The notes beneath the pieces were generated by a model. That model was not told where the DNA came from, did not search any database, and saw nothing but the letters and a program-made list of their open reading frames with translations. Shown one piece after another: positions 3,146 to 43,648 of a stretch of DNA of 64,000 nt. The stretch is taken from positions 202,544 to 266,543 of the forward strand of contig JBBFKW010000002.1 in NCBI GenBank assembly GCA_037481835.1, in the 5' to 3' direction. Made by a program: the position numbers and the translations under genes. The stretch comes from Desulfosoma sp. (lineage in GTDB: Bacteria > Desulfobacterota > Syntrophobacteria > Syntrophobacterales > DSM-9756). Position 1 is the first letter of the stretch; each line of letters begins with the position of its first letter.

Positions 3146-3221
3146 GGGCGGGTAACTCAGCGGTGAGAGTGCCATCCTCACACGGTGGAAGTCGAGGGTT
3201 CGAATCCCCCCCCGCCCACCA
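3146..3221 (+). tRNA. tRNA-Val(CAC)
   Basis: 76-nt cloverleaf: GGGCGGG/CCCGCCC acceptor stem, CCATC-CT CAC AC-GGTGG anticodon arm, GGTTCGAATCC T-arm, encoded CCA end. Confidence 0.96.
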
Positions 3222-7900: not shown

Positions 7901-7984
7901 GGCCTGGACGCCGGCGATGCCTCCACCAACCACCATGACGGATCCGATGGGGTTCGAAGGGGTGGGTCGCGTCGCATTGGTCAT
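4925..7984 (-). CDS. hdrA: Large heterodisulfide reductase subunit A family flavoprotein (1019 aa, duplicated FAD module)
   Basis: Two GGGIAG motifs, LDKTFPTDDCSLC, two QCVGSR...YCS.VCC blocks, VFVCHCG.NI, AACSPRTH, C-terminal ferredoxin. Confidence 0.95.
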   Translation of the reverse strand: MTNATRPTPSNPIGSVMVVGGGIAGVQAALDLADSGYFVHLIEKSSAIGGVMATLDKTFPTDDCSLCILSPKLVEVGRHLNIQLHTLAEVKDVSGDAGNFRVTVFQRARYIDMDKCIGCGTCAEKCPRKVPDEYNAGLGTRKAAYVKFPQAVPLKYVIDKDHCIYFEKGKCRACEKFCPTQAVKFDDQDREFTLDVGSIILAPGFEPFDPRVYDTYNYAKLPNVVTSMEFERILSASGPFEGHLVRPSDHQEPKKIAWLQCVGSRDIHHCDNGYCSAVCCMYAIKQAGIAIEHSGPELDTAIFFMDMRTPGKDFDKYYERAEKEKHVRFIRSRVHSIEAVPGTDDMAIQYVTEDGRIIEETFNLVVLSVGLQIAKDTLEMAERLGIEIGDGRFAATSPFEPVQTSRNGIFVCGVFQSPKDIPLSVMEASAAAADSAALLAPARNSLTRKPPALSEKDVAAEEPRVGVFVCHCGVNIAGVIDVAAVADYAETLPSVAYVERNLFTCAQDTQDKMKKVIEEHRLNRIVVAACSPRTHEALFQETLRQAGLNKYLFEMANIRNMGSWVHMNEPEAATEKAKDMVRMAVAKVALQQPLGEMELNVTKSGLVVGGGIAGMTAALTLADQGYPVTLVERKDVLGGHGRKLYSTWDGQPIAPYLDELIHRVIQHPKITVLTNAQIRDVQGFVGNFHTVVDVAGTRKEIDHGVAILAIGAHSLKPTEYGYGQSDRIFLNLDLDKAISERDPRIAHARSAVFIQCVGSREPERPYCSRVCCSHSIENALRLKKLDPEMDVYVLYRDIRTFGLRENLYKEARARGVLFIRFDLEKKPQVQVAPDGTLTVTVVDHVLQRPIVLKPDILTLASAIVMQSAEADELAKMFKVPLNSEGFFLEAHAKLRPVDFATDGVFVAGLAHYPKPTEECIAQAKAAAARAATILAKDSILAGGVVAVINKDLCCGCQGCVQCCPFGAISYLEKEAKCEVNQALCKGCGTCAATCPSEAITLLGFSHLQLYTQIDEALTA

Positions 7985-8008
7985 GATGCTCTCTCCCTTG
8001 TTTGATCC

Positions 8009-9490
8009 TTATTGCGTTTTGTCGTCGTCCTGTGCGGGACTGGGAGGAATGATCTTTTTCTGCCCGTTGGACAGGTATTCGTGCATGGATGCCGCGGCGA
8101 TGCGGCCCTCTCCCATGGCGCTGATGACCGTGGCCCCGCCCGAAACGATGTCGCCGCCGGCCCACACGCGGGCTTTGGAGGTGCGGCCCCGCTCGTCGAT
8201 GACCACGGTACCCCACCGGGTGACATTGAGATCCGGCGTCGTGGACGGGATGAGCGGGTTCGGGGAGGTGCCGAGCGACACCACCACGGTGTCCACATCC
8301 AGGATGTATTCGCTGCCGGGAATGGGCACGGGGCGGCGCCGGCCGCTTTCATCGGGTTCGGTGAGTTTCATCCGGATGAGTTCCATGGCGGCCACGTTGT
8401 TTCGACCGTCGCTCAGAAACGCCGTCGGGTTGCACAGGAAATGGAACTGGATGCCTTCTTCCTCGGCGTTTTCCACTTCTTCGAGCCGCGCGGGCATTTC
8501 GGCGCGCGTTCGGCGATAAATGACGTAGACCTCCTGGGCTCCAAGGCGCACGGCGCATCGCGCCGCGTCCATGGCCACGTTGCCGCCGCCGATGACCGCA
8601 ACCTTTTTCCCCATCTTGATGGGGGTGGCGTATTCGGGGTAGCGGTACGCTTTCATGAGGTTGGTGCGCGTCAAGAATTCATTGGCCGAATAGACCATGT
8701 TCAGGTTTTCCCCGGGCACGCCGAGGAATTTGGGGAGCCCCGCCCCGGGCGCCAGGTAGACGGCGTCGTAGTCCGTGCGCAGCAGCTCATCCAGGCTGTA
8801 GTTGATGCCGATGACGGTGTTGAGCCGCAGATCCACGCCCAGGGACTGCACGTACTGGACTTCCCGCTGAACGATTTCCTTGGGAAGACGAAACTGCGGA
8901 ATGCCGTACATGAGCACCCCGCCGGCCACGTGAAGGGCTTCGAAAAGGACCACCTGATGGCCCAAAATGGCCAGATCCGAAGCCACGGTCAGGCCGGAAG
9001 GGCCTGAGCCCACCACGGCGACTTTTTTGCCCGTGGACGGAGCCATCTCCGGCATGGTCGGCGTGCCCTGGGTGCGTTCCCAATCGGCGATGAAGCGCTC
9101 CAGGCGGCCGATGGCGACCGGAGCGCCTTTCTTGTTCAGGGTGCAGGCTTCTTCGCACTGGAGTTCCTGGGGGCAGACGCGGCCGCACACGCCCGGAAGG
9201 GATGTCTTGCGCTTCAGGACCTTGGCCGCCTCCTCGATGTCTTCACGCTGCAAGGCCGCAATGAAGTCCGGAATGTCGATGTTGACCGGGCAGCCCTGCT
9301 GGCACGGCCGCTTCTTGCACTGGATGCACCGTGAGGCTTCCTCTTTGGCCAGTTCCCACGTATAGCCCAGCGCCACCTCATCGAAATTATGCCGGCGCTC
9401 GTGTTCCGACTGCTTGGGCATGTCGACCCGGTTCAGGTTGAGCTTCTGTTTCTTCGCCGGGGCGCCCTTGGTTTCTTTTTCGTCCGTCAT
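8009..9490 (-). CDS. NADPH-dependent GltD-like flavoprotein (NfnB/SudA type)
   Basis: EASRCIQC..PCQQGCPV, CGRVCPQE, GSGPSG, GGGNVAMDAAR, YRRTRAEMPAR, GGDIVSGGATVISAMG. Confidence 0.92.
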   Translation of the reverse strand: MTDEKETKGAPAKKQKLNLNRVDMPKQSEHERRHNFDEVALGYTWELAKEEASRCIQCKKRPCQQGCPVNIDIPDFIAALQREDIEEAAKVLKRKTSLPGVCGRVCPQELQCEEACTLNKKGAPVAIGRLERFIADWERTQGTPTMPEMAPSTGKKVAVVGSGPSGLTVASDLAILGHQVVLFEALHVAGGVLMYGIPQFRLPKEIVQREVQYVQSLGVDLRLNTVIGINYSLDELLRTDYDAVYLAPGAGLPKFLGVPGENLNMVYSANEFLTRTNLMKAYRYPEYATPIKMGKKVAVIGGGNVAMDAARCAVRLGAQEVYVIYRRTRAEMPARLEEVENAEEEGIQFHFLCNPTAFLSDGRNNVAAMELIRMKLTEPDESGRRRPVPIPGSEYILDVDTVVVSLGTSPNPLIPSTTPDLNVTRWGTVVIDERGRTSKARVWAGGDIVSGGATVISAMGEGRIAAASMHEYLSNGQKKIIPPSPAQDDDKTQ

Positions 9491-10403: not shown

Positions 10404-13007
10404 CTATCTTTTCTCCACTTTTGCGGCCAGTGATGTGCCCGTAAGACGGCTTCCACCGAGAACGCCCTGGAGGCGCTCCGCCGGGACGACCACGAGCTTC
10501 AGGGGGAGGTGGATGTTCAGTGCCAGTCGCCCCGTCACTTCTCCGCCGTTGAAGACCACCGCCACGGTGTCCCCGGGCATGCACCCCAGCCGGTACGCAT
10601 CGGCCGGGTTCATTTCGATCTCGCCGTCACAGGCCATGACGGCCCGGGCTTCCGGAGCCAAGAGCGGCCCGAAGTAGGAAGGGTAGAGCGCTTCCTTGGC
10701 AGCCAGGTGCAAGGGGAATTCCTTGCGCACTTCGGCTGGCTCCGGAGTCCGAGGCGGCTGCGACGGCCTCCACGGTTTGTAAACCGGGGCCGAGTCGGCA
10801 AAGAGAATGGGCGTTCCTCCATGGTCCGAAGAAGGGCACGGGAGCTGCACCGCCTCGTATCGGGCACGACTGCGGTCTATCCCCGCATAGGACTCCTGCT
10901 GTGAGGCCAGACTTTTCAGGATCACAACGGGTTCTTCATCGCCGATTTCCGCTCCGCCCAGGAAGCGCGACAAGGCCGCCGCCGTCTGGATGATCGTGCG
11001 GGATCCTGTGGAGGTGGCCAGCGCTTTCTCCGTCCACTGGATTCGCCGCTCGGCATTGGTCAAAGAGCCGTCCTTTTCCAAAAGAGGAGTCATCGGCAGC
11101 AGGACATCGGGCCGGATAAATTCCGGCGGCGCCGTCACGTCCTGGACCACGACGAAGTCCAGGGCGTCGCGAAAAGACCCCAGGGCCGCCCAGCATTCGT
11201 CGCCGTAAGATTCCGCCGCCACGAAGACGGCCTTGATCCGGCCCGAAGCCACGGCCTCCATGACGGCCGGACTCCAGCCGAGATCGCGGGCGCCCTGGAT
11301 GTTGGACGACCCGAAAAGGGGCCAGAATCCTCCGCCGGGCTTTCCCAAGCTTCCCTTGGCGAACGCCAGGGAAAGGAGAGCCCGCGTCAGGTCGCCCACG
11401 TCGGGGGATTCCAAAACACCCAGTCCGGCCAAAACGGCCACCGTGTCACGCGCCGCAAGCATGCAGCCGGCTTCGACCAGTTCCTCGTCGTGGATCCCGG
11501 TCAAGTGGGAGACGGTCTCCACGTCGTAAGGGGCGGTGAGTTCTTTGAGCGCCGAGAGGAGCTCCGGGCCGGCCTTCTTGTCCGCCCCTTTTTCGTCCAG
11601 GATGATCCTCAAAAGGCCCAAGACCAGAGCGGTCTCCGATCCGGGCACGTAGCGCAGGTGCATGTGGGCGTAGCGCGCGATGGCCACATCATAGGGGTTG
11701 GCCACCACCAACTTGGCGCCCTTGAGCACCGCCTGGCGAATCGCTGTTCCCGCAATGGGATGTGAGGCTGCGGGGTTGCACCCCATGGCGAAGATGGCCG
11801 GCGCCTCGGCCAAGTCTTTCAAACTGTTGGTGGCGCACACCCTTCCCAACTGCTCGAACACCGCCTGCTCGAAGAGGGCCAGCCCTTGGGATCCCATGAG
11901 GCCCACATGGGGGGTGTTCAGCGATTCCCGGGCCACCCGATTCAGAACATGAAGTTCCTCATTGGTCAAGCGGCCGTCCGTCAGCACGGCGATCTGATCC
12001 GGGGCGTAGTCTTTCAGCCGTCGGGCGACGTGCTTCAGAGCTTCGTCCCACGAGCGGGTCTTCCAGCCGTCGGCGTCTCGCACGGCAGGCTGCCGGATCC
12101 TTTCGGGGCGGGCGATGTAGCGCTTGAGGAGAAAGCGGCCTTGCACGCAGGCCTGCCCATTGTTGCTGGGGCCGTCGGGGCTGGGCTTTACCTGGATGAC
12201 GGCTTCGTCGGCGCTCTTTTCCAGCATGAGCCGGCAGCCCGCGCTGCACACGGGGCAGATGGCCGTGGACCACAGAGTTTCCAGTTCTTTCTTGTAAAGG
12301 TCTGTCACGATGGCCGTCAAAGCGCTGCACACGGCGTCCATGGCCGAGCGGGTCTCGCCGTGGAAGTCCCCGAGATTCTCGCGCAAGGCCCCCACCGGAC
12401 ACACATCCACGCAGGCCCCGCAGAACTGGCACCCCGATTCTTCCAAGGTCCTGCCGAACGGCGTGCCCACGGATTGACGCCCGTCCTTGGATTCCCGAAA
12501 AACGATGGTGCGGGCCCCCCGCACTTCGTGGCACACCCGCACGCAGCGGCCGCAGCGCACGCACAGGCTGTAGTCCCTTTCGAAATAGGGGCCGCCGGGC
12601 AGCGGTTCGGGCCGGGAGACGTCGGGCGCCGGGTAGGGGAAATCGATTCCCACGGCCGCCACCAGCTGCTGAAGTTCGCAGGTGCCGTTGCGGGGGCACC
12701 CCAGGCAGTGCCGCGGATGGTCCTGGAGGATCAGCTGCAGCATCTCCCGGCGAAAGTCGATGACCTTGGAAGACTGGGTCTGCACGCGAAGGCCTTCGCT
12801 TACGGGCGTCGTGCACGCCGCCGGAAGGCCCCGTTGGCCTTCGATCTCCACGGCGCACAAGCGGCAGGATCCGCTGGGTTCCAAGGCCGGGTGGAAACAC
12901 AGCCGAGGAATGTAGATTCCGGCGGCATCGGCGGCCTGGAGGATCGTCTGACCGGTCCTCGCCTTGACTTGCTCATCGTTGATCCAAATGTTGACGTCGC
13001 TCATCAT
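10404..13007 (-). CDS. FdhF/NuoG-like multi-FeS molybdopterin-fold protein
   Basis: IPRLC..GSCRLC..AC [2Fe-2S], HxxxCxxC, CVRCGRCVRVC, CQFCGACVDVCP, CPVCSAGC..CVQG; MopB-fold remnants (GCNPAASHP, EKDGSLTNAERRIQ). Confidence 0.85.
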   Translation of the reverse strand: MMSDVNIWINDEQVKARTGQTILQAADAAGIYIPRLCFHPALEPSGSCRLCAVEIEGQRGLPAACTTPVSEGLRVQTQSSKVIDFRREMLQLILQDHPRHCLGCPRNGTCELQQLVAAVGIDFPYPAPDVSRPEPLPGGPYFERDYSLCVRCGRCVRVCHEVRGARTIVFRESKDGRQSVGTPFGRTLEESGCQFCGACVDVCPVGALRENLGDFHGETRSAMDAVCSALTAIVTDLYKKELETLWSTAICPVCSAGCRLMLEKSADEAVIQVKPSPDGPSNNGQACVQGRFLLKRYIARPERIRQPAVRDADGWKTRSWDEALKHVARRLKDYAPDQIAVLTDGRLTNEELHVLNRVARESLNTPHVGLMGSQGLALFEQAVFEQLGRVCATNSLKDLAEAPAIFAMGCNPAASHPIAGTAIRQAVLKGAKLVVANPYDVAIARYAHMHLRYVPGSETALVLGLLRIILDEKGADKKAGPELLSALKELTAPYDVETVSHLTGIHDEELVEAGCMLAARDTVAVLAGLGVLESPDVGDLTRALLSLAFAKGSLGKPGGGFWPLFGSSNIQGARDLGWSPAVMEAVASGRIKAVFVAAESYGDECWAALGSFRDALDFVVVQDVTAPPEFIRPDVLLPMTPLLEKDGSLTNAERRIQWTEKALATSTGSRTIIQTAAALSRFLGGAEIGDEEPVVILKSLASQQESYAGIDRSRARYEAVQLPCPSSDHGGTPILFADSAPVYKPWRPSQPPRTPEPAEVRKEFPLHLAAKEALYPSYFGPLLAPEARAVMACDGEIEMNPADAYRLGCMPGDTVAVVFNGGEVTGRLALNIHLPLKLVVVPAERLQGVLGGSRLTGTSLAAKVEKR

Positions 13008-13357
13008 GACCCCTGATTGTTTCGTGTGACCGTGAAATGAGCCGGATCAAGAGAAAAAAATCACATTAAAGGGCCAAAAAAACAATGGGAAACCCATCGC
13101 TTAAGCGCTCTTCGGCGGTAACATCCCCCCTGCCTCCAAGCCGTTAAACCATAAATGGAGACGGTTTCTTTGTCAACAACTTGGATCACCGACGTGCAGG
13201 TGCGTTCAAGGCCAGGGGTGCAGGGCCCGCCTTCACGCCCCTTGGGCTCCGAAGGCGTGACCGCTCCATTGCGCCTTGCGTCCGTCCGCGGTCATCGGGT
13301 AAATGGAAGCGGGGCCATCACAGGGTTCGGCACCGGACGATGACAACGGAGGCACGC

Positions 13358-30745: not shown

Positions 30746-31608
30746 TGTGTCAATGGAAATGAGACACCTCCGGTGAAGAATTAGACTCTCAGATCATCGC
30801 TTGTCTGCTTGTTGATCCAAGCGGCGGTTGGCAAAGCCGGAGGCTGCGGGATCTTGCCTTTGAAACGGGCAGGATTGGCTTCAAAGGCAGCCTTAAGGAC
30901 CAGGCGGCGTTGATCCACCACCTGAGCCGCCAATCCATAGTGGAGCCGCTCCGGCGTGACCCGTCCCATGCCTGAGTGGCGATGTTCCTGGTTGTACCAA
31001 GTGGAAAAATCCCGGCAAAAGGATCGGGCGTCTTGGATCGAACCGAAACGTCCTGGAAACTGCGGACAATGCTTGAGGGTCTTAAAATGGGCCTCCGAAT
31101 AAGGATTGTCATTGCTCACATGGGGCCGGCCGTGGGTTTTGGCGACCCCGAGATCCGACAGCACGTGGACGAGGCACTTCGAGGTCATGGGCGAGCCCCG
31201 ATCCGCGTGAACAGTAAGCCGGCCTTCAACAATGCGCTGCTTTTGGCAGGTCTCCTCAATGAGCTTCTGTGCCAGTGCGGCGCTCTCGCGGTGAGCGACC
31301 ATCCATCCCACAACGGAGCGGCTAAAGAGGTCCATAATGACGTACAGATAGGCAGGCATCGGCTTCTTTCAGGATTCGCACCTTGTAAGCAGCATTAAGG
31401 ACTCGTCGGGGTTTCTTTTCCATCACTTCCGGATCCGGCGGATTGAGAAGTGCCCCGATGGGGGTAACTCCAGTCGCCCTACGAGTTCGTTCCGCCGCCC
31501 CCATCCCTGTGCCGTGGTCGTGATTTTGAGTGGATGCCATAGCATGTCTTCTCCTACCCGCCCTACACTCATTTAACAAGGGGCAGGTGTCTCACCGTCA
31601 TTGGCACA
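30746..31608 (-). mobile_element. IS3-family element with internal deletion (863 bp)
   Basis: Imperfect terminal inverted repeats TGTGTCAATGGAAATGAGACACCT / TGTGCCAATGACGGTGAGACACCT; orfA start (KKPRR..YKVRILKEADAC) joined to rve domain (YLYVIMDLFSR, HADRGS, NDNPYSEAHFKTLK, YNQEHRHSG). Confidence 0.88.
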
Positions 31609-31734: not shown

Positions 31735-33137
31735 TTATTCATCGTCACGCCTCACCAAGGACCAGGTGGCTCCCCGGCCATGCCCAGATGACGACACCAA
31801 GTCCAGCTTTTTCAGGTGCAAAAGCTCTTCGCGAAGCCTCCGGTCAGATGGCGGATTCTCCAACCTGGAACGAATCTCGCGCAGGGGGATAGACGGTTTC
31901 TTGGACAAAACGTGCAGGATCTCCCGCTGTCGCTCGGTGAGGTCATGCGCTACGCGATGCGGGGCGATGTAGCCGCTGGGTACGAAGCGCACCCAGACGC
32001 TGCCGGCCTGCTCGCCGAACTCGGGCTCGGGTGGCCGGCTTTCACACAGAGCTCAACGATCTTTTGCGTGCCACGGCCCCAGCGTTCGATGATCCCGCGA
32101 AGATAGAAGACCGTGGCGATCAGCGGATTGCGAGGCTTCGACGGGTGGTCTCTCTTGAGGTCTGCTGGGCTGAGGCCAGCGGGCAATGTTCCATCGCTCC
32201 AGATCTCCAGACGGTCGTCGTAGATTGCGAGACTCACCGCCCCGCCTGTGATGGTGTAGTCCCGGTGGCAGAAGGCATTGACCAGCGCTTCCCGAAGGGC
32301 TTCGAGCGGAAAGAGCGGCTCGTCCTCCCGTTCGAACAGGCCGGGCACGATTCGGCCCGCCACCGGAAGGTGCCGACGCAAAAACAGCATGGCCTCGTCG
32401 AGGAGGGAGAATGCGTGGCCCTCCATCTGGCGCTGGTCGAGAAATTCCGATTTGTCCACTCCGCGGAAGCGGGCCATACGTAACTGGCATTGGGGGTAAT
32501 CGGGCAGGAAGCGGGTGCCGAATAGAAGAATGGCTGCGTTGTTCAGTCGACCGTCCTTGAGCAATCCCAACCGACGCAAGATGTCGGGGATGTCGCTGCC
32601 AGTCGATTCGGGTAGGCGGCCGGCAGCGATGCCTAGGCGCACGGTGCGCAGGATTTCCTCTTGGTCGAGGTCGATCAAGCCATATCCCTCGGCTTGCAGC
32701 GTTTCCCAGCGGGCGCGGCTGTCAAGACGTTCTGCCAGAAGCCGATGGTAGGTATCCTGAGGCATCACCGATGTGGTGGGACCCACCCGTTGATAAGGCC
32801 GACCGTCAAAGACATAGGGGCGCCGGGTGGGATCCGTTTGTGCCTCCAACACCAGCACTTCCTTGCCATCACCGAGGTCGATTCGTCCCTGACGGATGTC
32901 TACCGGAGGTTCAAAACGACCCATTTGCTCGGCCATCTCCCGTAAGGTCTTATCAGAGACAGCCTGACCGCAAATTTTGCCTTCAGGGGTAACGCCGATC
33001 AAAACCTTTCCCCCGGCGCCGTTGAGCATGCCGCAAAGGGTTTCCATCGCCCGGCGAAGCTGAGCCGAGGATTTCTTGAATTCTAGAGTTTCCGATTCGC
33101 CCAGTTGGACGAGTTGTTTTAGTTCGTTCCGGTCCAC
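31735..33137 (-). pseudogene. AlbA/Schlafen + HATPase_c_4 + winged HTH protein, frameshifted
   Basis: GESETLEFK, NGAGGKVLIGV, REALVNAFCHRDY, PRNPLIA, IERWGRG; one-base loss near 32030 separates C-terminal HTH frame (31735..31992). Confidence 0.85.
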
Positions 33138-34208: not shown

Positions 34209-35075
34209 CTATGCCATACGGGAGGGGTTTTGGGGAAGGGTGGCTTTGACCCACGAGACGACGGTGCGGAGCACTGCGGGGTGGTAGAGCATGGCCACAT
34301 GGCTCATGGGCGGAGTCCATCGGACCTGCCAGTGCGCCGCCGTCGGAAGGAGCGCCTCTTGAGGAAGCACCATGTTGTCCACCGGGGAGGCCAAGGCAAG
34401 GCAGGAAAAAGGGGGCTCGGGGGTGAGGTTTTCCAGGCTTTCCAAGTCTTCAAAAAGGCGGCTTCGGAAACCCAAGGATTTGCCCAGGCTTCCCACGGCG
34501 AACACGGCGAGGCGGCTCCCCTGATGGGGGGTTCCCAGGGTGAGGCACCCCGAAACAGTCCCTTGGCGGGCGGTCCATGCGGCATGGCGGGCAAGGAGTC
34601 CTCCCAGGCTGTGTCCCACGAGAAAAAGAGGCCGCGACGGGGCGCTCCGGTGCAGGGCTTCAATGTGGCCGCGAAGCTTTTCGGCCAGGGGAAAGAACGC
34701 TTCTCCCCGGCTGGAATAGGTCCACGGGCGGATGTCGTGGATCCCGGCCCGTTTCAAAGCGCGCTCCAAGAAGATAAAGGCGCTCTTGTTGTGATACAGC
34801 CCGTGAACGGTGACCACAATGGGATCCCGGGTGTCGGAACGTGTAGCGGCGCCTTTCCGCTTGGGAAGCCAGCCCAGGGGAAAGGTGAAGGCGGCCGTGA
34901 TCTGAGCCGCCACGGCCCAAAGAAAACCTAGAACCAGCCATGTTCTAACCCGCCCTTTGGAAAGGCTCCGAAGCTTTTCGAGGCCCGGCCCGTTTGCGGT
35001 ATCGTACCAATAGAGCGTATAGGTAGCGGCGGCAAAAAGGACGAAGAAGAACAGAAGGCCGAATGCCCACCCCAT
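34209..35075 (-). CDS. Membrane-anchored alpha/beta hydrolase (lipase/esterase-like)
   Basis: Two N-terminal TM segments, VHGL oxyanion motif, GHSLGG nucleophile elbow, LGTPHQGS, D.MV.P, SH. Confidence 0.88.
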   Translation of the reverse strand: MGWAFGLLFFFVLFAAATYTLYWYDTANGPGLEKLRSLSKGRVRTWLVLGFLWAVAAQITAAFTFPLGWLPKRKGAATRSDTRDPIVVTVHGLYHNKSAFIFLERALKRAGIHDIRPWTYSSRGEAFFPLAEKLRGHIEALHRSAPSRPLFLVGHSLGGLLARHAAWTARQGTVSGCLTLGTPHQGSRLAVFAVGSLGKSLGFRSRLFEDLESLENLTPEPPFSCLALASPVDNMVLPQEALLPTAAHWQVRWTPPMSHVAMLYHPAVLRTVVSWVKATLPQNPSRMA

Positions 35076-35770
35076 CACAAAAGCCCTCGCTTTTTCAGAA
35101 ACCCGACGACGTCCGCAAGATTCGCCACACTGCCTTCGGGTGCCGGTTTCATTCCGTTGAGGATGTCGGCGAGGAGGTCGCGTTCCCTTTCCGGGCGATG
35201 GAGAATCCACAGGCCGCGCATTCCCGAAGCCCGAGCCGGCTCTATGTCCAGTTCATAGGAATCCCCCACCATCCAACACTGTCCGAAGCCCCGCATTCGA
35301 GCGGCCTGGACCGCCTTTTCGAAGAGCGCCTCGGCGGGTTTTTTCACGCCTTCGCGGTAGCTCAAAAACCGAAAATCCGCCGACGCGTCGATGTCCGGGC
35401 ACCTTTTTTGAAATCCCAGGAAAAAGGGGTGCCAGATATTGGAAATGAGCCCTATGCCGTGGCCGGCTTCTTTCAGGAGCGAAACGAGCGCCGTAGCGCC
35501 GGGGATTTCACGGACACACTCCATTTGATCATCCCAGAGGCGCCGGATTTCGCGAAAGACCATGGCAGGGTCGTGGCGGGGAAGGACCGCCGAAACCGCC
35601 CGCCCGACCGTTTCCGGGTCCGCGGCGGGGAGGGTCATGAGGAGCTTTCCCACGGTCTTGGTCTCGTGTTCGTCCAGTTTCAAGGCGGCGCCGAGCAGCC
35701 GTCGGGGGGACGCCTCCGCCCCCGTAACCAGCGTATGCCCGATATCGAAGAAAAAAACGGTCTTTTCCAT
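35075..35770 (-). CDS. HAD-superfamily phosphatase
   Basis: FFDIGHTLV motif I, LISN, KKP, MVGDSYELDI motif IV. Confidence 0.9.
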   Translation of the reverse strand: MEKTVFFFDIGHTLVTGAEASPRRLLGAALKLDEHETKTVGKLLMTLPAADPETVGRAVSAVLPRHDPAMVFREIRRLWDDQMECVREIPGATALVSLLKEAGHGIGLISNIWHPFFLGFQKRCPDIDASADFRFLSYREGVKKPAEALFEKAVQAARMRGFGQCWMVGDSYELDIEPARASGMRGLWILHRPERERDLLADILNGMKPAPEGSVANLADVVGFLKKRGLL

Positions 35771-35790: not shown

Positions 35791-37260
35791 TTATTCCTGA
35801 ACGAAGGGCACGCCGTCCCGAAGGCAGCGTTCGGCCCGTTCCAATTGCCGGCCCAGGTACAGGGCGTGGTTGATATCCGAAAGAGCGCCGTCCCGGGCGA
35901 GTTCGTATTGAATCCGGGAGGCCTTGGCGTGCCGGTAGGTCTTGAGCGTCACGTCCCCGTAACGGTGTTCCACGATAATCGCTTCCCCATCCAGGGTAAT
36001 GCGAAAGTAGCCCATGGGATCTTCGCGATAGCGGAAAGATTTTTCGGCGGCGATGAGGGCGGCGCGATCCATTTGGCCCGGATCGATGGAAACGGACTGG
36101 CTGAAGACCGTGATGGGGCCGAGAGGCAAACCCACGGCACGGGCGACACATTCCCCCACAGCCATGAGGCCGTAAAAGTTCACAAGCCAAGCGTCCAGGG
36201 CATTATGGGTTCGAAACACGGCGGTCAGGGTCAGGGCCTTCTGAAACGTTCTAAAGAAAAGGCTCACCAGGCACGGATGGCCGGTTTCCGCCGTGAGGTC
36301 CCGCCTGGGGTCCCAGAGCACCACGTAGGCCTTGCGGTCCTGCGGGTCTTTTTTCAGCCGGTCGATGACCGCCGCAAGACCGTCCACCCCGAAATAGGCT
36401 CGGATTCGGTTTCCGTAGTTGTAGGTTTCATCGGGTTCGATGGAGCCGCTCAGGATGTCCTCCCGGTAGCGCTCCAGCCGTTCGGGTTGAAAACCGTAGC
36501 GGGAGAGCGCCTCGTTGGATACGGGTGCCGGTTTTTCCACGACGACCTTGACGTTTTGCAACTCCCGGCGCTCTCCCTTGGCGAGGGTTACGGCCACCCC
36601 GAAGCGATGGATGGTGTAAACGAGATCCTTCCATGCCTCCAGGGGATCGTCGGCGATGACGCTCAGGGCTCGAGGGTTTGAGGGGTAGCAGGAGACGTGC
36701 ACCTGGGGAAGGGGAACACTCAGGCGCCTGGCCGAAGGGGGAGGGACGGGACGATAGTTTTTGAGGAATTGAACGAGGTTGTGGGCGTCAGGATTTTCTT
36801 GTGGAGATCCGAAGAAAAGGACCTTGGGCGCCCTTTCGAAATGCTCGGGCCGCACGAGATCGTCCACTACGCGCAGGGTCCCTCGGATGCGCGCGGGGCT
36901 CGGGGTTCCGTGAGGGGTCGTTTCATAGGCGACGGGAGAACCCGGATAGGGTTCCAGGCCTTGATCGAAGAAGGCTTGCAATTCTTCCAAGGATCCGGAG
37001 CGGTTCCGGCCGTATACCACCAGGGTGTCGATCTGAGGGTTATGGAGCAGATTGCGCAACAATTCCCGGAGGCCGTTTCCGTACAAGGTGCCCACGGCGG
37101 CGATGGGGCTCGTTTCTTCATGGAGGTTCAGCCCACGGCGCCGCAGCCGTTCCAAAATCACGTCGGGACGGGACCAGAGGGTCACAAGCCCGACGGTCCC
37201 GTACGGGTTGATGACGATGAGGTTTTGGGCGCAATGGATCGGGACGAACCGGAGCTTCAT
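35791..37260 (-). CDS. Three-domain thymidylate-synthase-like protein (MtrA-like N-terminus, TS core, DUF4346-like C-terminus)
   Basis: YNYGNRIR, DRKAYVVLWDP, HPCLV catalytic Cys, FRTHN..AWLVN; N-terminal GTLYGNGL..LLRNLLHNPQI; C-terminal DPMGYFRI..HALYLGRQLERAE. Confidence 0.8.
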   Translation of the reverse strand: MKLRFVPIHCAQNLIVINPYGTVGLVTLWSRPDVILERLRRRGLNLHEETSPIAAVGTLYGNGLRELLRNLLHNPQIDTLVVYGRNRSGSLEELQAFFDQGLEPYPGSPVAYETTPHGTPSPARIRGTLRVVDDLVRPEHFERAPKVLFFGSPQENPDAHNLVQFLKNYRPVPPPSARRLSVPLPQVHVSCYPSNPRALSVIADDPLEAWKDLVYTIHRFGVAVTLAKGERRELQNVKVVVEKPAPVSNEALSRYGFQPERLERYREDILSGSIEPDETYNYGNRIRAYFGVDGLAAVIDRLKKDPQDRKAYVVLWDPRRDLTAETGHPCLVSLFFRTFQKALTLTAVFRTHNALDAWLVNFYGLMAVGECVARAVGLPLGPITVFSQSVSIDPGQMDRAALIAAEKSFRYREDPMGYFRITLDGEAIIVEHRYGDVTLKTYRHAKASRIQYELARDGALSDINHALYLGRQLERAERCLRDGVPFVQE

Positions 37261-37856
37261 GGGCGGGGGATGAAATCGGTGGCGGGGGTTCGGCGCCGGG
37301 AGGTGATGTTTCGGATGTCCGATAGGATGTAGTCGTAGGTTTCGGGCGAAATGAGGAGCCTTTCGAAAGTTTCGATCCCGGCTTCTCGAACGGCTTCTTG
37401 CCAAAAGCGATCCCTTTCGGGAGACGCCGAATCGTAGCTTTGTTCGTAGTACACGGCTCGGATCCGTGCGGTGGCGATGAGTTTCAAGCACACGTAACAG
37501 GGAGCCAAGGTCGTGTACAGGGTCGCCCCTTCGACGGAAATGCCGTATCGGGCCGCCTGGGCGATGGCGTTGGCTTCGGCGTGGCTGGCTTTGCAAAAGT
37601 TGTATTTGTCCACGTCGGGAACGCCGAGGCTCCGCCGGTAGCAGTAGGGCCGGCCGTCGTCCATGTCAGGCTGGTCGATGCAGTGGGGGGCCCCGGGCAT
37701 GGCGCCGTTATAGCCCGTGGAGAGGATATGGTTGTCCTTGACGATGACGGCGCCTGTCGGCCTGGAATTGCAGGTGGATCGGGTGCTCACGATCTTGGCG
37801 ATGAGCATGAAGTATTCGTGCCAGCTGGGGCGTTGTCGGGCCATGGCGTTCGTCAC
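37257..37856 (-). CDS. dCMP deaminase/ComEB family zinc deaminase
   Basis: RPSWHEYFM, RSTC, STGYNG, HAEANAI and PCYVC zinc motifs. Confidence 0.93.
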   Translation of the reverse strand: MTNAMARQRPSWHEYFMLIAKIVSTRSTCNSRPTGAVIVKDNHILSTGYNGAMPGAPHCIDQPDMDDGRPYCYRRSLGVPDVDKYNFCKASHAEANAIAQAARYGISVEGATLYTTLAPCYVCLKLIATARIRAVYYEQSYDSASPERDRFWQEAVREAGIETFERLLISPETYDYILSDIRNITSRRRTPATDFIPRP

Positions 37857-38863
37857 GAACCGTTTTCGGTTTTTTCATGGTACAGGAAGCACCGCACGAA
37901 CCGGTCCCGCCCGTACGGTTCCAAGGATGGCACAAAACGCCGGCACGTGTCCATGGCCTTGGGGCATCTGGGATGGAAGTGGCATCCTTCGGGCGGATGC
38001 AGGGGGCTCGGAAGGTCGCCCGTGAGGCCTTTTCGCGCCTTCTTGCGGTCCGGGTCGGGAAAGGGGGCGGCTTCCAGGAGGGCCTGCGTGTAAGGGTGCA
38101 GGGGGTCGTTGTAGAGGGTTTTCTTGTCGGCCGATTCCACGATACGGCCGAGATACATCACGGCCACGCGGTCGCTGATGTGGCGGACCACCGAGAGATC
38201 GTGGGAGACGAACAGATAGGTCAGGCCGAACTGTTCCTGGAGGTCCATGAGCAGGTTGATGACCTGGGCCTGGATGGAAACATCCAGAGCCGAAACGGGT
38301 TCATCACAAATGATGAGTTCCGGCTGAAGGGCCAGGGCTCTCGCGATGCCGATCCGCTGTCTTTGGCCCCCACTGAATTCATGGGGATAGCGGTTGATCT
38401 GTTCGGGTCTGAGTCCGACGACTTCCATGAGGTGGCGGACCCGTTCCTGCCGTTCCGCCGGCGAACCCACCTTGTGGATGACCAGTCCTTCGCCGATGAT
38501 GCGCCCGACGGTTTGGCGTGGATTCAAGCTGGCGTAGGGGTCTTGAAAAATGATTTGCATGCGGCGCCGAAGGGGACGCATTTGGGCTCGGTTCAATGCC
38601 ACGATGTCCAGGCCGGAAAAGACAATGGATCCCGCCGTGGGTTTTTCCAGCTGCAGGATGACCCGGCCCAGGGTGGATTTCCCGCAACCGCTTTCCCCGA
38701 CCAAGCCGACGGTTTCTCCTCTGAGAACGGACAGGGTCACCCCGTCCACGGCCTTCACCGTGCCCACCCGGCGGCGGAAGACGCCTCCCGTGACCGGGTA
38801 ATGTTTTTTTACGTTCTTGAGGGTGACGAGCGGTTCCATGGATTTGGATTTGGCGGGTTCCAT
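37853..38863 (-). CDS. dppF: Dipeptide/oligopeptide ABC ATPase (DppF-like)
   Basis: [47 protein letters not shown]. Confidence 0.9.
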   Translation of the reverse strand: MEPAKSKSMEPLVTLKNVKKHYPVTGGVFRRRVGTVKAVDGVTLSVLRGETVGLVGESGCGKSTLGRVILQLEKPTAGSIVFSGLDIVALNRAQMRPLRRRMQIIFQDPYASLNPRQTVGRIIGEGLVIHKVGSPAERQERVRHLMEVVGLRPEQINRYPHEFSGGQRQRIGIARALALQPELIICDEPVSALDVSIQAQVINLLMDLQEQFGLTYLFVSHDLSVVRHISDRVAVMYLGRIVESADKKTLYNDPLHPYTQALLEAAPFPDPDRKKARKGLTGDLPSPLHPPEGCHFHPRCPKAMDTCRRFVPSLEPYGRDRFVRCFLYHEKTENGS

Positions 38864-38969
38864 CGGTTTGTGCCTGTTTTGGGTTTTTGTTTCGCCCTTT
38901 CGGAGCTTTGGTTAGATCAAGGGGCCCCTTGACCCGGGGCTTGGCCCCGGGCTGTTTTCCTTGGCCTTT

Positions 38970-39965
38970 TCAGGGCCCAGGGCCTTCGGCCGGGGGCGCT
39001 GCATGAAGCCAGCAGCGCACGCTGTGTCCCGGCTGGAGCGCCGTCAGCGGCGGCTCTTCTTCATGGCAGCGGGGCATGACGAAGCTACACCGGTCGTTGA
39101 ACTTGCAGCCCACCGGCAAGGCGAGCAGGCTGGGCACAACGCCTGGGATGGCTTCCAGCCGGCGCTTTTCTTCGTGCACCAAGGTCGGGATGGACCGCAA
39201 GAGTCCCTGGGTGTACGGGTGCATGGGGTGATGGAACAGTTCGCGCACGGGAGCCTCTTCCACGACGCGCCCGGCGTACATGACCACCACGTGCTCGGCC
39301 GTTTCCGCCACGACCCCCAGATCGTGCGTGATCAAAAGCACGGCGGTGCCCGTGGTGCGACGCAGTTCATCCATGAGTTCCAGGATTTGGGCCTGGATGG
39401 TCACATCCAGCGCCGTTGTGGGCTCATCGGCGATGAGCAGGCGCGGGCTGCAGGCCAGGGCCATGGCGATCATGACGCGCTGGCGCATGCCGCCGCTCAT
39501 CTGGTGCGGATAGTCCCGAATGCGCGTCTCCGGTGACGGGATGCCCACCATGCGAAGAAGATCCACGGCCCGGTCCAGGGCTTCCTTGCGGGAAAGTTTC
39601 TCATGCAGTTCCAAGACTTCGGCGATCTGATCCCCGACCCGAAACACGGGATTGAGAGATGTCATGGGTTCCTGGAAGATCATGGAAATCTTGTTTCCGC
39701 GAACATGGCGCATCTCACTTTCCGAGAGACCAAGAAGGTCCGTGCCGTCGAAAAGGATGCGCCCGGAGGCGATCTTTCCCGGCGGAACGGGGATGAGCCG
39801 CATGATGGACAGAGCCGTCACGCTCTTGCCGCAGCCGGATTCCCCCACCAGGGCGAGGGTTTTCCCCGCGTCTACGGAAAAGCTCACATCGTCGACGGCT
39901 TTCACCGTGCCGCGGTCCGTGTGGAAGTACGTCGCAAGGTGTTCGACCTGGAGCAGAGGCGCCAT
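38970..39965 (-). CDS. dppD: Dipeptide/oligopeptide ABC ATPase (DppD-like)
   Basis: [39 protein letters not shown]. Confidence 0.9.
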
Positions 39966-39980
39966 GGAAAGGGTCCTTTG

Positions 39981-40856
39981 TTATTCACGAAGTCGGGGAT
40001 CGAGAGCGTCGCGCAGCCCGTCTCCCAGAAGATTGAAGCCCAGAACGGAAAAGAGAATCATCAAACCCGGGAAGGTGACGGCCCACCAGGCCCTGAGAAT
40101 GAGGGCCCGACCGTTGGCGAGCATGGCGCCCCATTCCGGAGTGGGGGGCTGGGCGCCGAGGCCGAGGAAGCTCAACGCGGCGGCTTCCAAGATGGCCGAC
40201 GCGAAGCCCAGGGTCGTCTGCACGATCAACGGAGCCAGGCAATTGGGAAGGATATGGACGAAAATCAAGCGGGCGTCACTGGCTCCCAAAGCCCGTGCGG
40301 CCTGCACATAGTCCTTGGCATACTCTTCCAGGACCGATCCCCGCACCAGGCGCGCATACCGGGGAATACTCACCACCCCGATGGCGATCATGGCGTTTTG
40401 CAGGCTGGGTCCCAAGAACGCCACAATGACGATGGCCAACAGGATGCTTGGGAAGGCGAGCAAAAGATCCATGAAGCGCATCACCACGTGGTCGAGAAGC
40501 CCTCCGTAGAAGCCGGCCGTCGAACCCGCCAGGGTCCCGAAAAACAACGCGATGGATACGGACACCACGCCGACGACCATGGAGATGCGCGCCCCGTAGA
40601 TGAGGCGACTGAGAAGATCGCGCCCGAAATCGTCGGTGCCCAGCACATGGGTCCAGGACCCTCCCCTTTGCCACACCGGGGGTTTGAGTTTGGCGTAGAG
40701 GGATTGTTCCAGGGGATCGTGGGGAGCCATCAACGGGGCGAAAAGGGCCATCCCGGCAAAGAGCACGATAATCGCCAAGCCGGCGACGGCCGTCTTGTTC
40801 TTGCGGAGGCGTCGGAAGGCTTCCACCCAAGGGCTCTGAGGTTTTTCGCCGTTCAT
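39981..40856 (-). CDS. dppC: Peptide ABC permease (DppC-like)
   Basis: LGTDDFGRD, YVQAARALGA EAA loop, LSFLGLGAQPPTPEWG. Confidence 0.9.
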   Translation of the reverse strand: MNGEKPQSPWVEAFRRLRKNKTAVAGLAIIVLFAGMALFAPLMAPHDPLEQSLYAKLKPPVWQRGGSWTHVLGTDDFGRDLLSRLIYGARISMVVGVVSVSIALFFGTLAGSTAGFYGGLLDHVVMRFMDLLLAFPSILLAIVIVAFLGPSLQNAMIAIGVVSIPRYARLVRGSVLEEYAKDYVQAARALGASDARLIFVHILPNCLAPLIVQTTLGFASAILEAAALSFLGLGAQPPTPEWGAMLANGRALILRAWWAVTFPGLMILFSVLGFNLLGDGLRDALDPRLRE

Positions 40857-41861
40857 TCACGACACCTTAATCCGCGGATTGATCCACGCGTAGAGAATAT
40901 CCACGATCATATTGATGGTGACAAAGGTGGTGGCGATGAGCATGGTGCCGCCCTGCACGGCGTTGAAATCCCGGGCGTAGACGGCGTTCAGGAGCCACAA
41001 CCCGATGCCGGGCCAGGCGAAAATGGTTTCCGTGAGGATGGCTCCTCCGAGGAGGATTCCGAACTGTAGGCCGATCACCGTGATGATGGGGATGAGGGCG
41101 TTTTTCAGGGCGTGCTTGTAGTGAACGAGTCGCGGCGGCAGGCCCTTGGCCTTGGCGGTTCGGATGTAGTCCTGGCGCAGGACTTCCAGCATGCTGGATC
41201 GGGTGATGCGGGCGATGATGGCCATGGGGATGGTGCTCAGCGTGAAGGCCGGCATGACGATATGCCACAGAGCGTCCCGAAACCCTTGCCAGTTGGCCGT
41301 AAGCAGGCTGTCTATGAGGTGCAGCCCGGTGATGGTCTGAATGTGTACGTTGTAGCTCAGTCGTCCGGACAAGGGGAGCCAGCCCAGGTGAAGGGAGAAA
41401 ATGATCATGAGGATCAAGCCCAGCCAGAAGATGGGCATGGAAACGCCCACGAGGGAACAGAGCATGCTGGAGTAATCGAAGACCGAGTACTGGCGCGTGG
41501 CGGAAATGACTCCGGCAAACATTCCCAATGAGACGGCGAAGACCATGGCGGCGAAAGACAGTTCCACCGTGGCCGGAAAACGTTCGGCGATTTCGGTTGT
41601 GATTTCTTCATGGGTGCGCAGGGCCCTGCCCAGATCGCCGCGCAGCAGCCGGGAGATGAACCGGCCGTATTGAATGTGCAAAGGCTGGTCCAACCCCAGC
41701 TGCTCGCGCAGTTCCTTAAGGGCCTGTTCGGACGCCCGTTCCCCAAGCATCATCTCGGCCGGGTCTCCCGGAACCAGGTGAATCATGAGAAACACCAGGA
41801 CCGAAATGCCGAAAACGGTTGGGATCAGGGTCAGAACGCGTCGAATGATAAAAGAAGCCAC
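40857..41861 (-). CDS. dppB: Peptide ABC permease (DppB-like)
   Basis: PGDPA, GLDQP, RFPATVEL, DYIRTAKAKGL, TETIFAWPGIG; GTG start. Confidence 0.9.
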   Translation of the reverse strand: MASFIIRRVLTLIPTVFGISVLVFLMIHLVPGDPAEMMLGERASEQALKELREQLGLDQPLHIQYGRFISRLLRGDLGRALRTHEEITTEIAERFPATVELSFAAMVFAVSLGMFAGVISATRQYSVFDYSSMLCSLVGVSMPIFWLGLILMIIFSLHLGWLPLSGRLSYNVHIQTITGLHLIDSLLTANWQGFRDALWHIVMPAFTLSTIPMAIIARITRSSMLEVLRQDYIRTAKAKGLPPRLVHYKHALKNALIPIITVIGLQFGILLGGAILTETIFAWPGIGLWLLNAVYARDFNAVQGGTMLIATTFVTINMIVDILYAWINPRIKVS

Positions 41862-41895
41862 GTTTGCCTCTCAAGAGAACCCCGCGGCGATTGCC

Positions 41896-43506
41896 TCAGG
41901 ATTCGATCCACACCTTGTGCAGCCGGATACTCGCCGTGGGATGAAGCTTGAAGTTCATCACGGACTTTTTCATGGGCCACACCACCAAGGAATGGGCCAG
42001 GTTGATCAAGGGCACTTCTTCATGGATCAGTTCCTGTGCCCTGCGGTAGAGTTTGATGCGTTCTTCCTTGCTGGACGCCTGTTTCGCTTTGACGATGATC
42101 TCATGATATTCTTGGTTCTTCCATTGGGTCCGCACGTTGGGGTCGGCATAGCCGTCCAAGAGCACGGCCAGGAAGTTGTCCGGATCGCCGTTGTCGCCGG
42201 TCCAGCCCAGCTGGAACATATCCATGGACGGATCCTGTTCCCGCTGTTTCTTCAAGTACGTGCCCCATTCAAAGGTGACCAGTTCCACGTCGATCCCCAC
42301 CTTCTTGAGATCCGCCTGAATGGCTTCGCCCACTTTCATGCCGTTGGGATTGTACGGCCTTGGTACGGGCATGCTCCACAGGGTGATCTTGGTCTGGCCG
42401 GCTTCTTTGAGTTTGTCGAAGAACTTGGCTTCCTGGAGGAGCTTCTTGGCCATTTCGGGATCGTAGGGGTAGTCCTGGATATCGTCGTTGTATCCCCACA
42501 TGGTGGGCGGGATGGTGTTCTTGGCCACTTGGCCCAAGCCGTAGTAGATGTTGTCCACGATGGCCTTCTTGTTGATGGCGTAGGCCATGGCTTTTCGGAT
42601 CCTCTTGTCCTGCCACAGCGGTTTCGTGTGGTTGAAACTCACGTAGCCGATATTCATGCCCGGCTGGGACACGAGCTTCAGGTTGGGGTCCTTGGACGCC
42701 AGTTCGATGTCTTCCGGGTTGGGAAACTGGCAGATATCGATGTTACCCGTCTTCAGTTCCAGAAAACGCACCGAATTGTCGGGGATGGTTCGAAAGATGG
42801 CCTGATCCAGATAGGGCCGGCCGTCCCAGTAGTCGGGGTTGGCCTGGAGAATGATCCGATCGTCTTTGATCCACTTGACGAATTTGAACGGGCCGGTGCC
42901 CACGGGGTTGCTCTTGAAATCGGGGCCCAGCTTCAACACCGCCGTGGGGCTGACGATGGCGGCGAAGTCCATGCCCATATTGGCGATGAAAGGGGCCTCC
43001 GGCCTCAAAAGCTTGAAAACCACCGTGTAATCATCGACAGCTTCGATGCCGGCGACGATCTTGTCCATTTCCATGGACAGCCAGTATTCGGCGGGGGGCT
43101 GTTCCTTGGGAAATTCCCACTGGGTTTTAAAAAACTTGACCTTCTTCTCCTTCATCATGCGCCCGAGGGAAAAGACCACCGCATCGGCGTTGAAATCCGT
43201 GCCGTCGTGGAACTTCACTCCTTTGCGCAAATGGAAGGTGTAGGTGAGCCCGTCGGGCGACACGTCCCAGGAGGTGGCGAGCCCGGGGACGATGTCCGTG
43301 GATTCGTCCGCATAGAGCACCAACTGGTCATAGACATTGTCGCAGATCATGAAAGAGTTGCCGTCGGTTTCAAAAGCCGGATCCAACCCCACACTGTCGC
43401 CGCCTCTGCCGAAAACCAGGGTGCCCCCCGTTTTCGGAGTGGCCGCCGCGGCCGCCGACGCCCACAAAATCCCCAGTGCCGCCATCCACACACCCCATCT
43501 TTTCAT
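41896..43506 (-). CDS. dppA: Peptide ABC substrate-binding protein (DppA-like)
   Basis: Signal peptide, [29 protein letters not shown] family 5 signature, [25 protein letters not shown]. Confidence 0.92.
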
Positions 43507-43648
43507 CGCCGTCCCTCCTTCGAACATCTTTGTGTGACACCGCCGAAGACCTTATCATGTCTAGGAAAACTGATGCACACGTAGCAGATCTTGTGTAAGA
43601 TGTCAAAAGTGGCGGATTCGAGCGACACCGGCATGGAAAGGAGAGGGA

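Follow-up and report, generated by a model that had tools for sequence, protein, structure and literature searches.

The 64-kb stretch of a Desulfosoma sp. contig analysed here (hereafter, the window) carries on its minus strand a gene of 489 codons (P0001, Table 1) for a three-domain protein of the thymidylate synthase (TS) family, called the fusion below. This protein is genuine and conserved, and is one of a large three-domain branch of the TS superfamily for which no published characterisation was found. It belongs to a subtype with Asn at the position of E. coli Asp169 (N-subtype) and most likely makes deoxythymidine monophosphate (dTMP). The best explanation, to which we give a probability of about 0.5, is that the fusion is the dTMP synthase of the organism, converting deoxyuridine monophosphate (dUMP) to dTMP by classical folate chemistry with altered binding of the cofactor, which is the single most likely case. 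The interest of the protein lies in how that cofactor is bound and used.

In the Desulfosoma protein, a short archaeal-type ThyA core is flanked by an MtrA-fold domain on its N-terminal side and a PterinBD-DUF4346 domain on its C-terminal side. According to profile searches, the tail matches PF14251 (PterinBD-DUF4346) at residues 413-489 with an E-value of 1e-16 and 61.9 bits (cut-off 29.6), covering profile positions 1-86 of 86. The core matches the ThyA superfamily model PF00303 (residues 282-449, 37 bits, cut-off 24.3), and among family models it is best matched by TIGR03283, which describes methanogen-type TS (residues 208-392, 126.6 bits). Regarding the N-terminal domain, residues 1-221 have no Pfam match at E<=10, NF002128 is reached with an E-value of 0.03 and 13.5 bits (cut-off 568, residues 53-88), PF04208 (MtrA) is touched by 1 of 11 orthologs (E 0.032), and a PDB profile search reaches MtrA at E 0.05-0.7 only. 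The domain thus stays under the MtrA family threshold (PF04208/TIGR01111), and with Pfam giving nothing and the PDB profile E-values being weak, assignment by sequence alone is insufficient; the MtrA fold was settled by a fold search. With a model of residues 1-200 built from the 11 orthologs (pLDDT 86.7) as query, MtrA chains take the first seven places in Foldseek. VIA-align against representatives places the model on 5laa_B (MtrA with cobalamin) with Z 13.7 and an rmsd (root mean square deviation) value of 2.3 A over 141/159 residues, followed by the next entry with Z 6.4. As modelled, the N-terminal domain has a clear MtrA fold despite its weak sequence likeness and is a true homolog of MtrA. 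The full-length model has pLDDT 78.9 and pTM 0.58, and TS-fold structures match it with Z 17-23 across ~200 residues.

Besides the fold, the N-terminal domain shares with MtrA (PF04208, TIGR01111; 5laa, 5l8x, 8q3v) a helix motif, G-[LI]-x(4)-N-L-[LI]-x-N-P-x-I, and after it a strand ending in G. In contrast to MtrA, it has Ser for His84 and Tyr for Glu54, with neither a membrane anchor nor an Mtr operon. His84 is the cobalt ligand of MtrA and Glu54 its partner (Wagner et al., PMC4915002). Aligning the ortholog profile to MtrA of 8q3v (E 0.052) pairs His84 with Ser90 and, by register, Glu54 with Tyr60. The family alignment is based on P0001 and 148 representatives (P0123-P0270); 103 members of 440-545 amino acids (aa) were kept and 46 shorter or longer ones dropped. 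The Ser90 position is occupied by S in 82, A in 9, T in 8 and G in 2 members and never by His in either subtype, and 100/103 have Tyr or Phe in place of Glu54. As for the tail, DUF4346 also terminates DHPS-like (TIGR00284) and MtrA-type (NF002128) models; it appears to be pterin-associated, and pterin binding is predicted, as the domain name implies. The three-domain anatomy proposed by the first-pass annotation therefore stands, with PF14251 for the tail, PF00303/TIGR03283 for the core and the MtrA fold (Z 13.7) for the N-terminus. So does its remark that the MtrA-like motif lacks the following His, since His84 aligns to an invariantly non-His Ser90, and the similarity to MtrA and DUF4346 on which its reading hinged is found by fold and profile.

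Residue equivalences in the core were taken from profile alignments to E. coli TS chains, where the two best entries are 1bjg/1dna (N at 169) and 1evf/1evg (T at 167). P329-C330 corresponds to E. coli P145-C146, R350-T351-H352-N353 to R166-S167-C168-D169, N361 to N177, S391-I392-D393 to H207-L208-Y209, and R309-K310 to R126-R127. By these equivalences, the nucleotide site is retained, with Cys330 as the predicted nucleophile, Asn361 to recognise uracil, the phosphate-binding Arg350 and Arg309, and Tyr282 (Tyr94 in E. coli). Their conservation among the 103 members is 103 for C330, 103 for R350, 102 for N361, 95 for R309 and 102 for Y282. The roles of the phosphate and uracil residues come from the same published table that gives His207 and Tyr209 as hydrogen-bond partners of the dUMP sugar hydroxyl (PMC6005164). 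Position 351 (Ser167) is Thr here and S in 50 or T in 36 members of the family, and position 327 (143 in E. coli) is Gly here and S, G, N or H across the family. A study of MilA associates deoxyribose preference with Ser167 and Arg126' and ribose preference with Ala and Lys (PMC5175136). Since Thr351 and Arg309 match the deoxyribo-type signature, dUMP is favoured as the substrate, and a ribonucleotide substrate is disfavoured by the same Ser/Thr167 and Arg126' signature. The catalytic PC and the uracil-specifying Asn had been described as kept, in agreement with the counts above, and the reported changes of RSxD to RTHN and of HxY to SID are confirmed by the E. coli TS alignment, all quoted motifs being present in the translation. 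The pocket changes are not a general trait of short TS, because a short TS from the same bacterial class (locus L015) retains RSWD and HIY.

An exhaustive search of 1.84 billion representatives finds 1849 family members with E<=0.001, of which 192 reach E<=1e-30. The 103 aligned members are 24.7-53% identical to P0001. Of these, 61 have N at position 353, 35 have D and 7 another residue; H and Y at 391/393 occur together in 33 of the 35 D members, and H or Y in none of the 61 N members. According to these residues, the family splits into a subtype with the canonical D/H/Y pocket (D-subtype) and the N-subtype, to which the Desulfosoma protein belongs and which is seen as derived. Position 353 is the sole column that is strongly conserved in both subtypes with differing residues. 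A FastTree phylogeny with midpoint root separates 62 members (57 N, 0 D) from 41 (35 D, 2 E, 4 N) and requires three changes by parsimony, the support of the split being weak (0.43-0.46). All three domains are present in both subtypes, with mean column conservation of 0.46-0.52 per domain. The architecture is thus older than the pocket change, because D-subtype members carry the same N- and C-terminal domains. The suggestion of the first-pass annotation that the altered pocket goes together with the fused domains is therefore not supported: 35/103 members keep D169, and 33 also H207/Y209, with the same extra domains.

The records that gave N-subtype loci belong to Desulfosoma, Desulfacinum, Syntrophobacterales, Desulfobaccales, Desulfofundulus, Desulfovirgula and Armatimonadota, and the named host genera are presumably anaerobes. 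Among 10 D-subtype sources looked up, the 4 with names are two Parcubacteria, one Nanoarchaeota archaeon and candidate division KSB1. Many copies are labelled in databases as 'thymidylate synthase' or 'DUF4346 domain-containing protein', much as had been anticipated. Three longer members (P0027, P0130 and P0170, 683-797 aa) have a second TS core and a second DUF4346 tail after the first set, and the second core of P0170 has Leu-Ala at the place of Pro-Cys.

A free-living bacterium needs dTMP, and the fusion is for this reason taken to be the working enzyme; that it is the working thymidylate synthase of the cell is quite probable. The Desulfosoma genome is 99.37% complete, and its single PF00303 match is the fusion gene. 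The check for thyA and thyX proposed earlier gives no match to ThyX (PF02511) anywhere in this genome and no canonical ThyA. TIGR03283 matches the fusion gene and one short paralog, P0271 (259 aa; contig 24 of the same genome, G000, 12329-13105 (+); 1486-2265 of locus L094), which PF00303 misses. P0271 is ~50% identical to ordinary short bacterial TS, has a 38-residue insertion before the Cys, and shows RSWN (D169N), Gly/Ala for His207/Tyr209 and Gln-Cys for Pro-Cys. A relative with the same insertion, P0314, retains RSWD and HIY.

In a sample of 201 genomes of the phylum, 191 have at least one match to ThyX, PF00303 or the fusion. The full-length fusion is present in 11 genomes, and ThyX in 125 of the 201 and in none of these 11. 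PF00303 matches the fusion itself and nothing else in 8 of the 11 fusion genomes and gives no match in the other 3. The P0271 type (>=90% identity) occurs in 3/201 genomes, those of the family of Desulfosoma, all among the 11. Since the short paralog is limited to 3/11, the other 8 have nothing else, the fusion being their sole TS-fold or ThyX match. A second set comprises 40 host genomes reached via the fusion loci, at least 5 of them shared with the phylum sample by contig and coordinates. Here TIGR03283, which is more sensitive, gives a second match in 9 genomes, and the fusion stands alone in 29, including the cultured Desulfofundulus thermobenzoicus (L053/G225); a control shows that this search detects classical ThyA too.

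As for the reaction, Cys330 would add to C6 of dUMP, a reduced folate would donate the one-carbon unit, and the product would be dTMP. The cofactor would be held otherwise than in classical ThyA, probably aided by the fused pterin-associated tail, and the upstream deoxycytidine monophosphate (dCMP) deaminase would supply dUMP. FolD is found in the Desulfosoma genome and the tetrahydromethanopterin cyclohydrolase Mch (PF02289) is not, so reduced folate is the likely carbon source; tetrahydromethanopterin was set aside as the one-carbon carrier on the same grounds. Dihydrofolate reductase (DHFR, PF00186) is matched in 15/201 phylum genomes. Among the 11 fusion hosts, 3 have partial matches (53-57 bits) and 8 have none. 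Some 60 phylum genomes combine a canonical-pocket short TS with no PF00186 match. The absence of DHFR is therefore uninformative on the product, and co-occurrence with DHFR, found in just 15/201 genomes whatever the TS type, was dropped as a non-discriminating test of dihydrofolate (DHF) production. DUF4346 is found in 15/201 phylum genomes (the 11 with fusions and 4 more). The idea that the extra module acts in trans for short TS was rejected, many short-TS genomes having no DUF4346.

Regarding the start of the gene, at least 11 homologs among the matches listed are exactly 489 aa long with query coverage of 100%. The 489-aa start is thus considered correct, and a 601-aa open reading frame (ORF) starting with TTG is ruled out, as the 489-aa homologs fit the ATG start. 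This ATG shares 4 nucleotides (nt; 37257-37260) with the stop of the upstream dCMP-deaminase gene. The deaminase is coupled upstream here and in 5/5 loci of the same family or order, compared with 0/5 more distant loci, and its coupling fits the picture of dUMP as the substrate. Downstream, the HAD hydrolase adjoins the TS gene here and in the same order, occurs in 9/77 fusion loci, and forms a C-terminal extension of P0196, a family member from another lineage, the fused copy being 30% identical across the whole HAD protein of the window; it is a recurring partner of the fusion gene. HAD phosphatases usually carry Asp two places after the nucleophile. The window HAD hydrolase starts with FFFDIGHTLV, having Gly where the second Asp is expected, and the fused HAD domain of P0196 shows the same pattern (FDLGATLV).

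Table 1. Features of the Desulfosoma sp. window discussed in the text (window positions)
Feature	Position	Strand	Remark
Three-domain thymidylate-synthase-family protein gene (P0001), 489 aa	35791..37260	-	Stop codon included
N-terminal MtrA-fold domain, aa 1-200 (as modelled)	36661..37260	-	Conserved motif GTLYGNGLRELLRNLLHNPQI...GRNRSGS, without the cobalt-ligand His
Short (archaeal-type) ThyA-fold catalytic core, aa 201-410	36031..36660	-	
C-terminal PterinBD-DUF4346 domain, aa 413-489	35794..36024	-	
Ser90 codon	36991..36993	-	Position of MtrA cobalt-ligand His84
Cys330 codon	36271..36273	-	E. coli Cys146, catalytic nucleophile; 103/103 members
Asn353 codon	36202..36204	-	E. coli Asp169; N 61, D 35 of 103 members
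Ser391-Ile392-Asp393 codons	36082..36090	-	E. coli His207-Leu208-Tyr209, 3'-OH binders
dCMP/cytidylate deaminase gene (ComEB-like)	37257..37856	-	Upstream neighbour, translationally coupled
HAD-superfamily hydrolase gene	35075..35770	-	Immediately downstream of the TS gene
Alpha/beta-hydrolase gene	34209..35078	-	4-nt overlap with the HAD stop; synteny limited to the same order

To find recurring neighbours, ORFs of 77 fusion loci, obtained with a crude ORF caller, were clustered. The most frequent are a 268-aa protein (32 loci), GAF (31), arginase (26), a hydrolase (25) and GT2 (20), followed by deoxyhypusine synthase (18), ParB-CE (10), HAD (9), dCMP deaminase (6) and MazG (6). All of these neighbours are lineage-specific only, and no conserved redox or cofactor partner recurs beside the fusion gene in the 77 loci. 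The GT2 cluster lies upstream and is adjacent in none of its 20 loci, and the ParB-CE gene (PF24392, e.g. 7498-8115 of locus L033) is directly adjacent on the same strand in 9 of its 10. Around the D-subtype gene, dCMP deaminase is found in 2/8 loci, HAD in 0 and ParB-CE in 0 (tblastn, E<=1e-3); this is a small sample reached from a single D-subtype protein, and divergent homologs may escape.

Directly upstream of the dCMP-deaminase gene, and overlapping it by 4 nt, is a complete five-gene ABC transporter operon of oligopeptide/dipeptide type (37853-43527 (-)) with SBP_bac_5, two permeases and two ATPases, the last ATPase standing upstream in both same-family loci as well. On the other side of the operon, a few kb downstream, there are an integrase-core (rve) ORF (30781-31359 (-)), whose match starts at position 24/102 of the rve profile, and a Schlafen AlbA_2/HATPase_c_4 protein (31950-33137 (-)). 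The sole Rfam match in the 64-kb window at gathering scores is a tRNA gene (3146-3218 (+)); the same search gives no riboswitch upstream of the TS gene and no cobalamin riboswitch in the window.

Among known systems, the methanogen/archaeal short TS (TIGR03283) is the best family match of the core, which shares with it the short fold devoid of the large ThyA insertions and the equivalents of Cys, Asn177, Arg166, Arg126 and Tyr94. The fusion differs in that its core lies between two extra domains, in the replacement of D169, H207 and Y209, and in its sub-equivalog score. Classical ThyA (EC 2.1.1.45) has the same fold, Cys mechanism and presumed reaction, but keeps D169/H207/Y209 and has no extra domains, whereas ThyX (EC 2.1.1.148) shares the presumed dUMP to dTMP reaction and has an unrelated fold. 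Both accessory domains occur in the same order in free-standing MtrA-like+DUF4346 proteins (NF002128 type). A 381-aa example (genome G018) scores 397.8 bits with NF002128, and its tail is 29% identical to that of the fusion (E 1e-11). Such proteins, however, retain the MtrA Glu and His, have a Cys-rich N-terminus and lack a TS core. As a TS-like gene lies within 4 kb of them in 0/80 loci, they were rejected as neighbours of TS genes.

Several observations weigh against folate-dependent dTMP synthesis by the fusion. Three residues of canonical ThyA, Asp169, His207 and Tyr209, are replaced by N353, S391 and D393, and this His and Tyr are described as 'extremely conserved' in TS, dCMP/dUMP hydroxymethylases and MilA (PMC5175136). 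The TIGR03283 score lies under the equivalog cut-off of 174.55. The second TS-fold gene means that 'sole candidate' is not strictly valid for the Desulfosoma genome, and ThyX stands beside the fusion in 2/40 host genomes. The closest solved structures to the full-length model are phage hydroxylases (9iqu Z 22.9, 9iqc Z 22.1; rmsd 2.1-2.4 A over 200-204 residues), followed by MilA with Z 20.4 and classical TS with Z <=18.7, although the gap to the phage enzymes may partly reflect the shared short TS fold. According to PMC13326640 (2026), the only characterised natural D169N enzymes are phage TS homologs that carry flavin and make 5-hydroxy-dCMP, and D169N is proposed there as a predictor. Finally, no measured activity of any family member was found in the literature. 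Searches for DUF4346, PF14251/PterinBD and TS with MtrA and pterin returned no paper on the fusion, and broader searches gave nothing on it in titles or abstracts, most subscription journals being outside the search, which agrees with the earlier statement that no characterisation was known; fusion-related words have no match in PMC9931769.

One alternative deserves particular attention, even though it seems rather unlikely: the N-subtype would be a third kind of TS, new in its mechanism and the only one in many anaerobes, with a ThyA fold and Cys dependence. The pterin ring would stay off dUMP, a flavin or, less likely, a methyl-corrinoid would deliver the reductant or methyl, and tetrahydrofolate (THF) would be regenerated without DHFR. 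In the flavin version, which we regard as improbable, reduced flavin would stack on Cys-activated dUMP and give the hydride, as in ThyX redox chemistry, methylene-THF, bound with the aid of the pterin-associated tail, would give the carbon only, and THF instead of DHF would be released. D169N, invariant in the N-subtype (61/61), is diagnostic of the flavin-carrying phage TS-fold enzymes (PMC13326640), namely the 5-hydroxy-dCMP synthases AfhB of phage HY126 (9iqu/9iqc), RB69 gp48 and DLP3 gp80, which have it in common with the fusion (N353). These enzymes are also its best solved matches, one of them with flavin adenine dinucleotide. An Asn both gives and takes hydrogen bonds and might suit the carbonyl/NH edge of a flavin better than Asp, and a separate short-TS lineage (P0271 type) likewise combines the D-to-N change with the absence of H207/Y209. 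The failure to match DHFR in 8/11 hosts could be read in the same direction, but with DHFR rare phylum-wide and missing beside some 60 canonical short TS, its absence discriminates nothing. No flavin reductase or redox partner recurs beside the gene in the 77 loci. Moreover, the phage enzymes are O2-dependent, with Asp177 for cytosine, whereas the fusion family keeps N177 for uracil (102/103) in cellular hosts that we take to be anaerobes. For these two reasons a hydroxylase is unlikely. The phage proteins differ further in having an acidic residue for L143, Gly327 in the fusion, and no counterpart of its two extra domains, and the fusion is the sole TS-fold or ThyX match in most host genomes searched.

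Synthesis of another C5-modified uracil nucleotide (5-hydroxymethyl-, 5-hydroxy- or ribo-5-methyl-uridine monophosphate) by a non-housekeeping enzyme is less probable again. The product would perhaps be dephosphorylated by the linked HAD, and dTMP would come from an unrecognised source or the second paralog. This reading would make use of the loss of the 3'-OH binders with an acidic residue at 393, of the HAD hydrolase, adjacent here and fused in P0196, and of the second TS-fold gene in the Desulfosoma genome; position 143 is also non-hydrophobic, and Leu143 has been tied to methyl over hydroxymethyl products (PMC13326640). However, no other ThyA/ThyX-like gene is found in 8/11 and 29/40 host genomes, the second paralog has D169N as well, and Ser/Thr167 with Arg126' is the deoxy-type signature. 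No hypermodification-type glycosylase, kinase or glycosyltransferase recurs nearby in the 77 loci, the GT2 cluster never being adjacent, and O2-dependent hydroxylation is unlikely in hosts presumed anaerobic. The modified-pyrimidine product entertained by the first-pass annotation is therefore the less likely branch, the fusion being the sole TS-fold gene in most host genomes.

Even less credit is given to a bifunctional enzyme resembling DHFR-TS, in which the MtrA-fold domain and the pterin-associated tail would re-reduce or recycle the DHF made by the core. In both subtypes the two extra domains match the core in conservation, the tail is also found on pterin enzymes (the TIGR00284 DHPS-like and MtrA-type models), and DHFR is not matched in the 8 hosts mentioned above. 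Against this, searches with the N-terminal domain recognise no nicotinamide or flavin motif, and its fold matches a corrinoid protein only. The ~60 canonical short-TS genomes have neither DHFR nor DUF4346, so the module is no general answer to a missing DHFR.

The least probable alternative of all is a methyl-corrinoid relay, in which the tail would bind methyl-THF and methylate a His-off corrinoid on the MtrA-fold domain, the methyl then passing to C5 of Cys-activated dUMP and no DHF being formed: the N-terminal domain is, by its modelled fold, a true MtrA homolog, free-standing relatives with the MtrA Glu and His exist (G018), CobS is found in 36/40 host genomes and several named hosts are acetyl-CoA-pathway anaerobes rich in methyl-THF, but no member has His at the His84 position and nearly all (100/103) have Tyr/Phe for Glu54, D-subtype proteins combine the complete classical pocket with the same His-less domain, CobS is not matched in 4/40 hosts including all 3 Armatimonadota, the free-standing genes have a TS-like neighbour in 0/80 loci, and no cobalamin riboswitch is found in the window.

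To our knowledge, ThyA and ThyX, each a drug target, are the only characterised classes of thymidylate synthase. In many sulfate reducers and syntrophs, some Firmicutes and Armatimonadota, no TS-fold or ThyX gene other than the fusion was found, and several hosts are in culture (Desulfacinum infernum, D. hydrothermale, Thermodesulforhabdus norvegica, Desulfofundulus thermobenzoicus and Desulfovirgula thermocuniculi). This puts a limit on the D169N predictor rule of 2026, since D169N is also present in cellular uracil-type enzymes of presumed anaerobes. The main subtype lacks three pocket residues kept by the TS, hydroxymethylase and MilA enzymes compared in PMC5175136. If it makes dTMP, the scaffold either can do without these residues or works with a different cofactor, and either outcome would revise the definition of the family. 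Such activity would further show how these organisms get by with few recognisable dihydrofolate reductases.

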